Part shown: in pieces, positions 3,637-6,491 of the stretch
How the letters are laid out: each line of letters starts with the position of its first letter
Position numbering within the stretch: the stretch's first letter is position 1
From: an uncultured bacterium
GTDB taxonomy: Bacteria > Omnitrophota > Omnitrophia > Omnitrophales > Aquincolibacteriaceae
Direction: 5' to 3'
NCBI GenBank assembly: GCA_964410905.1
Contig: CAYPIR010000001.1
Span: forward strand, 21,861 to 85,860
Length of the DNA: 64,000 bases
Position numbers and translations under genes: made by a program
Notes under the pieces: model-generated
Told to the model about the DNA's origin: nothing
Databases searched by the model: none
Seen by the model: the letters and a program-made list of their open reading frames with translations, nothing else

Positions 3637-4131
3637 CTATTGAGCCCCGTCCTTTCCCATTTCTTCTTCTTTTGCTTTTTTTGCCTTAAGCTTTTCGGCG
3701 TCCGTTTCGAGCGCGCTTTTTTCTGGCGTCCAGCCCGTGTCATCTTTAACTTCATGGATTGGGTCGGCAAGCAGCAATTCTTGCGCGTCGTTATATTCTG
3801 TAACAAACAATGCGAAATTTTCCGCTGTCGCAATTTTGCTATTAATTGCAGCCCCGCCCTTTCCATCTCCGCCGGCAACGATAAGCCCTTTTTCAACCAA
3901 CGCGTCAACAAATAATTTAAAATTTTCATCAATATTAGCAGGGACTCCCGCTATAGACTTTAGAGATGCCAAAACCGCTTCGCTAGATGCTCCTCCGATA
4001 ATGCGCGCAAATACTTCCGTTCCAAGCGGATTCATTCCGTAATAAATGCCCGTTTCTGAATTAATGACGATTGCGATTCCATCCGCAATGTCGGAAAACA
4101 TTTTCGATTCGTTTAAAACATAATTTGCCAT
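3637..4131 (-). CDS. PqqD-family / RiPP recognition element (RRE) protein with a ~75-aa charged C-terminal extension
   Basis: The N-terminal 90 aa (ADGIAIVINSETGIYYGMNPLGTEVFARIIGGASSEAVLASLK ... FKLFVDALVEKGLIV) follow the PqqD beta-strand plus winged-helix pattern. There is a 1-nt gap to the upstream kinase gene. Confidence 0.75.
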   Translation of the reverse strand: MANYVLNESKMFSDIADGIAIVINSETGIYYGMNPLGTEVFARIIGGASSEAVLASLKSIAGVPANIDENFKLFVDALVEKGLIVAGGDGKGGAAINSKIATAENFALFVTEYNDAQELLLADPIHEVKDDTGWTPEKSALETDAEKLKAKKAKEEEMGKDGAQ

Positions 4132-4132
4132 T

Positions 4133-5221
4133 TTATTTTTTCTCCTTGTTTAGTTTGTTGCAAAACTCTCGCAAGCATTCGACATTGGCATAAATATCGG
4201 GTGAGAGATTTATTTGATAAAAGTTGAAGTCCCTAACAAAATTCATTAATTTGCGAACTGTTGCAATATCAAGCTTGTCGCCCATCTGATTGATAGTTGA
4301 ATGAATAAGCTGCGTAATCGCTCTGCCTTTTTCGCACGACGCAATTGAGGGAGCTTTGTCAGATACAATTTCAGGGAAAATGCACGCTTTGATCGCGTAG
4401 TTTTCTCTGAACTGTTTGTGATAATTAGAAATGCTAAATACGTATTTATCACGCCTCGCGTTGTTGGAAACAAACTTGCCGTCAAACTCATAATAAAGTT
4501 CGTTCCACATTCGCGGGCTCAAAGTAACAATGGAATATATTGGCGAACTGAGCAATTTGCCATTCGTTTGTTTTTCTAAGATAAGATAATCATCTGAAAC
4601 ATATTCAAAGCCTTGCATCATAGACAATACCGCCAAAGTAGATTTGCCGCGTTGTCCGCGCGCGCATACCAAAACTCCGCTGCCGTTTAATCCTACCACC
4701 GCCGCATGAACAAGGTTTGCCGTCGGCGATTTGATGACCTTGTTGAAAAGCTGCACAAAAATATGCCCTTGTTTTATGAACTCTTCCGGGTCAAGATTTT
4801 CAGCGGCATAATAGTATGTATTGTTTTTTGCATCGTAAGCATTAACAAAACCTGTCGTTGGAAAAACAGAAATGTTAGAGCCGTCATCGCCTTTAATGTC
4901 GACATCAATCCAATCTTGATGTAAGACTAACTTTTCAATTCTCGCGCGCATTTTGCCGTGCGAATCAAGCAAGGATTCTGACAACTGTTTTATTTTTGTT
5001 TCTTTCCAAATAACAAGCGTCGCGTCATAGCAATCCGAGTTTGATTTCAATGTAAAGGCGAGTTGTTTTTCAACAAGAGGCGTCCACTCTTTATGAAAAC
5101 ATTCAATTCGCAATGTCTTAGAACCTAATCGCACAAACCGTATCCATTCGCGCGTGTTTGTTTGGCGAATATTGCTATCAAGTTTTTGGACATATGCCGG
5201 CGCATCGCCTTTTATGAACAT
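4133..5221 (-). CDS. HPr kinase-like (HprK-related) P-loop serine kinase
   Basis: VHAAVVGLNGSGVLVCARGQRGKSTLAVLSMMQGFEYVSDDYLIL matches the HprK C-terminal P-loop region (G-x-G-K-S/T ... ADD). It overlaps the upstream NTase gene by 10 nt. Confidence 0.7.
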   Translation of the reverse strand: MFIKGDAPAYVQKLDSNIRQTNTREWIRFVRLGSKTLRIECFHKEWTPLVEKQLAFTLKSNSDCYDATLVIWKETKIKQLSESLLDSHGKMRARIEKLVLHQDWIDVDIKGDDGSNISVFPTTGFVNAYDAKNNTYYYAAENLDPEEFIKQGHIFVQLFNKVIKSPTANLVHAAVVGLNGSGVLVCARGQRGKSTLAVLSMMQGFEYVSDDYLILEKQTNGKLLSSPIYSIVTLSPRMWNELYYEFDGKFVSNNARRDKYVFSISNYHKQFRENYAIKACIFPEIVSDKAPSIASCEKGRAITQLIHSTINQMGDKLDIATVRKLMNFVRDFNFYQINLSPDIYANVECLREFCNKLNKEKK

Positions 5222-6216
5222 TTTCGCTGCTCCCGCATTGAATTAAATCCCTCAGCCATTTTTAAAAACAGCGCTATTAACTGATCGCTTTTGCCAATTG
5301 TTTTAAGAAATCTGTGATAAGGCTTATCTTTTAACCAATTTTTCATTACTTCAAAATTTTTAATCGCATTTTTCAGCTTTAATTTTTTGCAGCGCCATTT
5401 CACATCATAGACATAAAATCTGTAAAAAACCAAACGGTTCCTATAATTTGCTGCGGATTTTTTTAGCTTTTTATTGTGGAGAAATAAATCGGGCAAGAGA
5501 TTGGGCGATATGCGATTTAAAAGTTTTGCGGCAAAAAACAATGTCGCTTCGCAAGATGCCTTTTGGGCATTTTGAAAAACTCTTTTCCAATCAAAATTAG
5601 GATTAGTTTCGAGCAAATATTTAATGTCAAAAAGAGCAAACAAAACTCCGCCTAGGGTTGTTTTGTAATGCAAATTTCGGCTTATGTTGGTCAGCGCGAC
5701 AAATACAAAATCCTCAGGGGTAGGCACAAACGCTCTCGCGCCGAAAACATCTTGCAAAGTTGCCCGCGAAAAAAAGTCTCTCATTAAACTTTTGTCATAA
5801 TCAGGGACATCAAAATCAATAAAACGATGTATATCAACCGTTCCTTCGTCCGTTCCTTTTGGATGTAAGTCCGCCGAGTAGGCATTAAATTCCGCGACCG
5901 TATAGCCGAGATTTTTTGCTATCTCAAGCGACTTTCTATAATCTTCTTCGCGTACCAAAATATCTATGTCGCCCATTGCTCTGGGTAATTCCGGTCTTAT
6001 ATATTTCATCGCGCCGCCTTTTAAAATCATTGGAATAATTCCGTTTTGGTTAAGGGCGCGGACGACTTTGCCAAAATGCGCGATAAGTTTGAGGTTGGCA
6101 AAACGATGAAATTCCAGAACTCCTTTTAAACGCGGATAAATTAGGTCGGGCACGTCAAAATTAGGACGGGATTTTATTGTATACGAGAGAAGTAAAATTT
6201 TTCTGCCATCCGCCAA
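5212..6216 (-). CDS. Nucleotidyltransferase family protein (NTP_transf_5-like); minimal ORF starting at TTG 6216, true 5' end probably at ATG 6430 or 6452 after repeat slippage
   Basis: ILKGGAMKYIRPELPRAMGDIDILVREEDY is a Pol-beta-type NTase G-x ... D-x-D signature. The same frame stays stop-free for 72 further codons upstream (to 6432, just after TAA at 6433-6435) and runs through the (CAAG)10 repeat, but contains no ATG/GTG/TTG. Confidence 0.7.
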   Translation of the reverse strand: MADGRKILLLSYTIKSRPNFDVPDLIYPRLKGVLEFHRFANLKLIAHFGKVVRALNQNGIIPMILKGGAMKYIRPELPRAMGDIDILVREEDYRKSLEIAKNLGYTVAEFNAYSADLHPKGTDEGTVDIHRFIDFDVPDYDKSLMRDFFSRATLQDVFGARAFVPTPEDFVFVALTNISRNLHYKTTLGGVLFALFDIKYLLETNPNFDWKRVFQNAQKASCEATLFFAAKLLNRISPNLLPDLFLHNKKLKKSAANYRNRLVFYRFYVYDVKWRCKKLKLKNAIKNFEVMKNWLKDKPYHRFLKTIGKSDQLIALFLKMAEGFNSMREQRKCS

Positions 6217-6383
6217 TTCGATATCAAAATCGATGAGAAAATCATCTAGTGTTTTTTGCGTGGATTCTTCGCGGAAAGCAAGATCGATAAGTTTTTGGTC
6301 TTTTTGCGAAACAATTTCTTGATAAAACGCTTCTTCCGCCCAAAAGACTTTGTCTTCTTTTAAAAAACTTAATCGATTAGTAT

Positions 6384-6423
6384 CTTGCTTGCTTGCTTGC
6401 TTGCTTGCTTGCTTGCTTGCTTG
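6384..6423 (-). repeat. Perfect tetranucleotide microsatellite, (CTTG)10 on plus = (CAAG)10 on the coding strand
   Basis: Counted directly: tat-[cttg x10]-tagacat, 40 bp with no interruptions. Confidence 0.98.
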
Positions 6424-6491
6424 TAGACATTCTTAAACTCGCGGTTTTGCATTTTTTAAAAATTAGAAAAATAATTTTCTGTCCATTTTTT

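Follow-up and report, generated by a model that had tools for sequence, protein, structure and literature searches.

A nucleotidyltransferase-kinase-PqqD gene cassette with a long conserved RRE tail and trailing glycosyltransferases in an Omnitrophota genome

RiPP recognition elements (RREs; PqqD-like domains) are the main handle for mining genomes for ribosomal peptide natural products. RRE-associated kinase and nucleotidyltransferase (NTase) tailoring is known already from lasso peptides: in pseudomycoidin biosynthesis PsmK phosphorylates the C-terminal Ser of the lasso precursor, and PsmN, an uncharacterised NTP-transferase, is needed for the installation of one or two hexoses on the phosphate (PMC6993621). 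Genes for an NTase, an HPr kinase, a PqqD protein and a family 2 glycosyltransferase (GT2) also co-occur in lasso clusters of rumen Butyrivibrio (PMC7533575). Here we describe a newly recognised cassette that brings these protein types together without a precursor gene and adds to them a conserved RRE tail motif and an array of glycosyltransferases (GTs). It lies in a 64,000-nt stretch of an uncultured Omnitrophota bacterium (assembly GCA_964410905.1, contig CAYPIR010000001.1, positions 21,861 to 85,860), the whole of which we call the window. On the minus strand an NTP_transf_5 nucleotidyltransferase gene is followed by a P-loop kinase gene with the phosphoenolpyruvate carboxykinase (PEPCK)/HprK fold and then by the gene for a 164-aa PqqD/RRE protein:

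5212..6430, minus strand: NTP_transf_5 (Pol-beta-fold) nucleotidyltransferase, PsmN-like (PF14907); out of frame in the assembly via the repeat
6384..6423, minus strand: (CAAG)x10 tetranucleotide repeat, NTase codons ~4-17 (Tandem Repeats Finder)
4133..5221, minus strand: two-domain P-loop kinase, PEPCK/HprK fold, Pfam 'ScmC'-type, 362 aa
3637..4131, minus strand: PqqD/RRE protein with C-terminal extension ('PqqD-long'), 164 aa (PF05402)
3718..3798, minus strand: tail motif, PqqD residues 112-138, E-Y-N-D-A-Q-E-L-L-L-A-D-P-I-H-E-V-K-x-x-x-G-W-x-P-E-K, superfamily signature

A preliminary description of this DNA, made by a model from the letters and their open reading frames (ORFs), had proposed a three-gene operon whose junctions are a 10-nt overlap and a 1-nt gap; both were confirmed (NTase/kinase, 5212-5221; kinase/PqqD, 4132). 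The three protein types named there, an NTase with GDIDIL, an HprK-like kinase and a PqqD/RRE protein, are likewise all present by Pfam match (PF14907, PF05402), motif and fold. By analogy, the functionally closest system would be the lasso kinase/NTase/B1 tailoring set of the pseudomycoidin/paeninodin type (PsmK/PsmN/B1), which holds the only characterised relatives of the trio. The window has the same three protein types; its NTase belongs to an 'uncharacterised nucleotidyltransferase' family, its kinase carries an HprK-like P-loop and SDD, and its PqqD domain is structurally nearest to lasso B1 RREs. Unlike the lasso set, however, the window contains no precursor, cyclase, B2 protease or dedicated exporter, an absence first remarked on for the operon that extends across ~80 related loci. 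An Asn-synthetase-like macrolactam synthetase (C) was found neither among the operon neighbours and the 10 upstream genes (Pfam) nor as a recurrent cluster in ~90 related loci examined with flanks of up to 10 kb, and no transglutaminase-like leader peptidase (B/B2) turned up near the operon in the window or among the recurrent clusters of these loci. Three of the four defining features of a lasso cluster (cyclase, protease and precursor) are thus missing, and the PqqD-like RRE (B1) is present. The proteins themselves also depart from their lasso counterparts: PqqD-long is twice the length of lasso B1 (78-88 aa by the lengths of the hidden Markov models, HMMs) and bears an invariant C-terminal motif that B1 lacks, the two-domain cassette kinase resembles PEPCK and often carries a fused second RRE, and the cassette is always trailed by 1-10 glycosyltransferases.

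Three named families, HPr-rel-A, HprK-rel-B and SynChlorMet, share with the window the pairing of an uncharacterised HprK-like kinase with a PqqD protein and supply the best HMM matches for the window pair, but the scores fall far below the curated cut-offs. The kinase reached 30.8 bits against TIGR04352 (HPr-rel-A kinase A) and 30.9 bits against TIGR04355 (HprK-related kinase B), each with a cut-off of 200, and the SynChlorMet models ScmC (TIGR04249) and ScmD (TIGR04248) gave 19.2 versus 125 and 26.9 versus 100 bits; the window has no ScmE/F radical-SAM pair and its operon no radical-SAM gene. PqqD-long scored 20.9 versus 70 and 16.2 versus 80 bits against two lasso_PqqD models, which together with ScmD were its only NCBIfam matches at E <=0.01; the HPr-rel-A PqqD model gave none. 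By these scores (~20-31 bits against cut-offs of 100-200 for the three named families) the trio lies outside HPr-rel-A, HprK-rel-B, SynChlorMet and lasso_PqqD, with the NTase in PF14907 (92.9 bits, cut-off 31.2; profile positions 20-246 of 249) and the PqqD protein in PF05402 (residues 21-84; 28.5 bits, cut-off 23.4). No member of the trio matched the PADLOC defence library, and searches of the open-access literature by family names and by gene combination returned no description of the cassette.

The order NTP_transf_5, kinase, PqqD-long, glycosyltransferases recurs in 80 GTDB species genomes and 6 metagenome contigs, with flanks that are unrelated from locus to locus. Because the same gene order sits in unrelated genomic contexts, the region is one copy of a widespread, horizontally mobile cassette. 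Besides Omnitrophota, its hosts include Gastranaerophilales/Melainabacteria, Desulfovibrio, gut and rumen Alphaproteobacteria, Rickettsiales, Spirochaetes, Planctomycetota and Bacteroidales. The segment after PqqD is highly variable and comprises 1-10 GT2, GT8 or DUF4422 enzymes, accompanied at various loci by aldo-keto reductases, radical-SAM enzymes, epimerases, UDP-glucose dehydrogenase, a split transketolase and HAD-like proteins. In the window this segment reads, in the direction of transcription:

2338..3531, minus strand: AAA_14/DUF4143 ATPase gene, between PqqD and the first GT2 (PF13173, 68.7 bits)
2268..2275, minus strand: poly-G8 after an A8 run, its end 1 nt short of the GT2 start codon
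593..2266, minus strand: GT2 glycosyltransferase, 557 aa, '+1' cassette type (PF00535, 135 bits)
1..600, minus strand: second GT2, first 200 aa, running off the window, '+2' type (PF00535, 137.8 bits)

The preliminary description had placed the operon beside two GT2 genes. Both are real, and the 557-aa enzyme has its best match at the first position after PqqD in 56 of 83 loci (37-43% identity over 580-616 aligned residues in five loci), while the second is 55-61% identical to GT2s of ~335 aa found in other cassettes. Since the first is the orthologue of the '+1' glycosyltransferase and the second is of the common ~335-aa cassette type, both belong to the system. They do not, however, directly adjoin it, because the AAA_14 ATPase gene intervenes. 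This gene matches the PADLOC candidate defence family PDC-S01 (2.8e-27), and an AAA_14-type gene occupies the post-PqqD position only in assemblies of the same organism (L001, L095-L097) and in 0 of ~80 other loci, a distribution that marks it as an insertion outside the conserved cassette.

Foldseek searches with the N-terminal ~88 residues of PqqD-long returned as best matches the lasso B1 RREs TbiB1 (5v1v, 5v1u) and 6jx3, structures solved with the leader peptide bound, at target-normalised TM-scores of 0.81-0.84 (TbiB1, 0.83). The AlphaFold2 model (64-sequence alignment) is confident over residues 1-110, with block pLDDT values of 84-97, and continues into a tail with a helix at 116-122, a low-confidence stretch at 125-142 in which the motif region falls below pLDDT 50, and a C-terminal helix at 145-157; the tail motif is accordingly predicted to be disordered from residue 125 on. 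The 971 homologues are mostly 155-160 aa, which upholds the long tail as a conserved family hallmark, but the tail is not merely acidic and lysine-rich, as it had been described; it is the most conserved part of the protein, above the RRE domain, and holds the motif DAQELLLADPIHEV..GW.P. Ten of the 12 positions of D115-A-Q-E-L-L-L-A-D-P-I-H126, together with V128, G133, W134 and P136, are identical in 120/120 close homologues, and L119 (113/120) and E127 (116/120) are nearly invariant. In an alignment of 73 distant relatives with the window protein, D115, L120, L121, D123, P124, I125, H126, V128, G133 and W134 are each kept in >90% of the 74 sequences. A Ser/Thr in the segment 'GW(T/S)PE', raised as a phospho-acceptor by a 7-sequence alignment, fell away when 120 sequences and the distant relatives were compared; across the 120, the residues at position 135 are Q51/T49/A9 and those at position 132 are T86/A18/S7. 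An apparent 455-aa PqqD-GT2 fusion at one locus (L037) proved to be an artefact of translation across masked bases (XX).

No NCBIfam family was matched by the tail alone, and a profile built from it retrieved 131 proteins among 1.84 billion representatives. These are mostly PqqD proteins of ~130-185 aa from a much wider bacterial range that end in [YF]xD[MA]Q[ED]LLLxDPIH[ED]V..GWP. By our estimate their identity is roughly 25-30%, their NCBIfam scores too are far below curated cut-offs, and their loci keep the four gene types in permuted order, as in PqqD, kinase, three GT2 and NTP_transf_5 (L091) or NTase, kinase and PqqD (L094). A distant version (26.7% identity) is carried at 5896-17248 of pCRI9333.04 (L098, NC_019735.1), a mobilizable plasmid of the cultured cyanobacterium Crinalium epipsammum PCC 9333, where the PqqD protein, encoded at 5896-6360, ends in ...DLLLLDPIHEVDVEAGWPNAKTA. 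Downstream of its gene come those for an NTase, an 'HPr kinase' and an FkbM methyltransferase, then two GT-A genes, a second NTase and an ABC transporter. The tail motif is therefore the signature of a superfamily of four-component systems. Some superfamily members (P0343, P0350) show tandem duplication, with two PqqD domains that each precede a motif; the first motif is degenerate and the last canonical.

The kinase has an intact Walker A (GQRGKST) and SDDY. Its matches to Hpr_kinase_C, HprK_rel_A, HprK_rel_B and ScmC are weak (18-31 bits versus cut-offs of 33-252), and precomputed matches place it in the newer Pfam family PF27840 'ScmC'. The AlphaFold2 model (monomeric, as were all models) is confident, with pLDDT 93.3 and pTM 0.90, and combines a PEPCK/HprK fold with the Walker A and the catalytic Asp. 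Its homologues (659 at 50-62% identity) have a median length of 493 aa versus 362 aa for the window kinase; in most of them the extra ~130 C-terminal residues form a second PqqD-like domain without the tail motif, which at one locus (L031) is encoded as a separate gene and which the window kinase lacks. A fused second RRE is typical of peptide-directed enzymes, and we count it in favour of a peptide or protein substrate.

The NTase retains the Pol-beta-type G..DxD motif as GDIDIL, and its 5' end holds the repeat. The preliminary description had begun this ORF at TTG 6216. The frame from ATG 6430, however, reads through a perfect (CAAG)x10 (period 4, 10.0 copies, 100% matches) and at 10 copies stops after 17 codons; because the ~70 residues gained ahead of TTG 6216 have counterparts at the N-termini of 76 full-length homologues (370-425 aa), in an alignment that takes in the conserved block ..LAF....TQ..LD.FL..WDIE.., we place the start of the gene at ATG 6430. 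The repeat thus falls among the first codons, and the assembly has the gene out of frame (OFF). An in-silico scan of copy number gave an NTase ORF of 400, 404 or 408 aa at 6, 9 or 12 copies and stubs of 13-25 aa at 7, 8, 10, 11, 13 or 14 copies, so that copy number resets the frame of the full-length gene and the earlier claim that the repeat gates the operon stands. The gene thus has the architecture of a contingency (phase-variable) gene, and slippage of (CAAG)n, if copy number does vary as we presume, would switch the system from OFF at 10 copies to ON at 9 or 12.

Tetranucleotide repeats in lex2A and lic2A of Haemophilus influenzae mark phase-variable glycosyltransferase (contingency) loci of host-adapted bacteria, and we take the lex2A unit to be the same as that of the window (GCAA/CAAG register). 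As in those genes, the window has a perfect tetranucleotide repeat just past the start codon with copy number setting the frame, in a locus rich in glycosyltransferases. Unlike them, the switched gene encodes an NTase-fold enzyme heading an RRE/kinase module and not a glycosyltransferase, the host is an Omnitrophota bacterium, and the repeat is known at one copy number; to our knowledge, a tetranucleotide contingency repeat is unusual in Omnitrophota. Apart from (CAAG)x10, the 64-kb window yielded a single simple repeat, the A8-G8 pair before the 557-aa GT2, possibly a second slippery tract acting on the GT2 ribosome-binding region. In other hosts, NTase genes carry poly-G/C tracts of 9-18 nt at or just upstream of their 5' ends (L006 8815-8825, L007 1663-1673, L089 7242-7250 and L031 125-142), and in several cassettes glycosyltransferase and aldo-keto reductase genes carry poly-G or (AG)n tracts, which may point to switches that arose independently.

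Gene content, conservation, synteny, folds, the tail motif and the frame logic of the repeat were read directly from these data. By analogy with PsmK/PsmN, we tentatively favour an RRE-scaffolded, peptide- or protein-directed machine for phosphate-linked glycosylation. The head of the cassette comprises the NTase, the kinase and a PqqD protein whose DAQELLLADPIHEV..GW.P tail is predicted to be disordered, and the variable array of glycosyltransferases and sugar-modifying enzymes follows it. In such a machine the RRE protein would act as an adaptor, its RRE fold, its tail motif or both joining the acceptor with the kinase and the NTase; the kinase would phosphorylate the acceptor; the NTase-fold enzyme would cap the phosphate with a sugar, following the PsmK/PsmN example from pseudomycoidin; and the downstream glycosyltransferases would extend a strain-specific glycan. 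We infer each catalytic step, and the acceptor with it, from the analogy. Candidate acceptors are a genetically unlinked protein or peptide of the host, the RRE protein itself and a non-peptide molecule, and the ORF screens described below suggest that the acceptor is not a small peptide encoded with the cassette. Of the orphan modification system envisaged in the preliminary description, the RRE, the link to glycosyltransferases and the gating by a repeat have held, whereas the tail as a Ser substrate has not.

Several results weigh against this phospho-glycosylation scheme. PsmN activity has not been shown in vitro (PMC11912497), and the whole-protein fold of the kinase best matches PEPCK, a small-molecule enzyme. 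A missing precursor ORF is unusual for an RRE-based system. The window leaves no room for one, since the NTase start has 61 nt ahead of it and the genes adjoin tightly, and a co-conserved small ORF, which the preliminary description had suggested looking for in homologue neighbourhoods, did not appear: neither the clustering of all ORFs >=40 aa nor the screen of non-genic ORFs (12-90 aa) inside the cassettes or up to 800 bp away yielded a small ORF of at least 12 aa conserved in more than three loci, and the top cluster was antisense to GT2 genes. Nor does anything link the 62-aa ORF at 16796-16984, which lies 10 kb off behind unrelated housekeeping and restriction-modification genes and outside the small-ORF screen, to the operon. 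In the PqqD tail, no Ser, Thr or Tyr is conserved in the 120 close or the 73 distant relatives, which argues against the tail as a fixed O-phospho-acceptor, the role that had been suggested for it. As to the switch, simple-sequence repeats are not enriched in cassettes over flanks of equal length (17 versus 12, p = 0.23), and repeat-number polymorphism among assemblies of the same organism could not be seen, one contig beginning inside the repeat and the others ending before it (contigs of 2-3.4 kb).

That the kinase fold is closest overall to PEPCK makes a non-peptide substrate plausible, and a possible, somewhat doubtful alternative is that the product which the cassette builds or modifies is a glycoconjugate without a peptide, for instance a glycolipid, a small-molecule glycoside or a glycan of the lipooligosaccharide or capsule kind. 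The kinase would then act on a sugar or small molecule, the NTase-fold enzyme would transfer a phospho-alcohol or nucleotide, and PqqD would serve only as an adaptor between enzymes. Phase-variable, glycosyltransferase-rich loci are classically surface-glycan loci. The genes for GT2, GT8, DUF4422, MptE-like, epimerase, UDP-Glc dehydrogenase and split-transketolase proteins resemble those of lipooligosaccharide and capsule loci, an MsbA/PglK-type ABC exporter is present in 15 loci, and the named hosts are nearly all diderm lineages (one metagenome-assembled genome is labelled Heliobacteriaceae); this repertoire and host range, like the PEPCK-like fold, support a non-peptide acceptor, as do the tail without a conserved hydroxyl and the lack of a precursor gene. 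Set against these are the nearness of the PqqD domain to bona fide leader-peptide-binding RREs, the extra RRE fused to most kinases, and the action of the nearest characterised relatives of the trio on peptides. Furthermore, no phosphoglycosyl transferase, Wzx/flippase, Wzy/polymerase or ligase was found among the recurrent accessory clusters that were annotated, some low-frequency or flanking clusters having been left unannotated.

We think it unlikely that PqqD-long is itself the acceptor or carrier, with its tail docking leader-like on an RRE, its own or the kinase-fused one, and a glycan growing on PqqD-long, perhaps by way of a non-hydroxyl linkage to an invariant Asp or His or after cleavage of the invariant Asp-Pro bond. 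PqqD-long is the sole conserved non-enzyme in a self-contained mobile cassette that has no separate precursor; its tail motif exceeds the RRE domain in conservation and is predicted to be disordered in the manner of a substrate or leader segment, for which the tail-less extra RRE of the kinase could act as receptor. But HprK-type kinases are known to phosphorylate Ser, and the tail conserves no Ser, Thr or Tyr; a reason for a phase-variable or diversified cytoplasmic glycoprotein is hard to see, and no N-terminal signal peptide is evident by eye (no predictor was run). A more far-reaching form, to which we attach a similarly low probability, would be a new glycoconjugate pathway in which the RRE protein with its leader-like DPIHEV..GW tail is the primer or carrier and neither a lipid carrier nor a separate precursor is used: the PEPCK-like kinase and the NTase-fold enzyme would attach the first sugar through a phosphate or through Asp/His, perhaps once the invariant Asp-Pro bond has been cleaved, and interchangeable glycosyltransferases would build on it a strain-specific, phase-variable glycan. 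It is very improbable that the trio is an ordinary lasso tailoring module (B1, kinase and NTase) served by a precursor, cyclase and protease elsewhere in the genome, since, for all that lasso genes of Firmicutes come with these three protein types and the PqqD domain matches lasso_PqqD HMMs below their cut-offs, no cyclase/protease cluster recurs in the ~90 loci, the 20 kb of the window adjoining the operon hold only unrelated genes, the cassette moves as NTase, kinase, PqqD and glycosyltransferases into unrelated contexts, and lasso B1 proteins do not have the tail motif.

The cassette thus presents an RRE family of roughly a thousand sequence clusters in a mobile setting that has neither a precursor gene nor a class-defining enzyme, and it is common in gut and rumen Melainabacteria, Desulfovibrio, Alphaproteobacteria and Spirochaetes. 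If the acceptor is a peptide or protein, as we tentatively favour, the cassette would represent a new phospho-glycosylation route and would clarify the chemistry of PsmN-type 'nucleotidyltransferases'; if it is not a peptide, RRE domains would have been recruited outside peptide biosynthesis. The hypervariable glycosyltransferase content and, in the window at least, the contingency switch suggest a variable surface or interaction determinant. The plasmid copy in the culturable Crinalium epipsammum PCC 9333 makes the question experimentally approachable.

Upstream of the operon the window holds genes for the alpha and beta subunits of electron transfer flavoprotein (ETF), ETF-quinone oxidoreductase (ETF-QO), an acyl-CoA dehydrogenase, a type II restriction-modification pair and GlgB, and further upstream for a major facilitator superfamily (MFS) transporter, a MacB-HlyD-outer-membrane-protein efflux set and LigA; by the window gene annotation none is related to peptide maturation. 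LigA shares 64-67% identity with the nearest relatives that carry a name, every one of them a Candidatus Omnitrophota protein, which makes an Omnitrophota host probable. A scan for promoters and terminators gave nothing above shuffled expectation. The restriction-modification pair (12730-14630, minus strand) sits between the acyl-CoA dehydrogenase gene and glgB and consists of an R.Pab1-like endonuclease (PF09522, 146 bits) and a type II methyltransferase (PADLOC MTase_II, 7e-81). The minus strand carries nearly all long ORFs of the window, and each 2-kb bin shows a negative GC skew. At 63351-63438, inside the last ORF of the window, lies an imperfect 12/24/36-nt tandem repeat array of CTTTTTTTACCG-like units with 72-80% matches.

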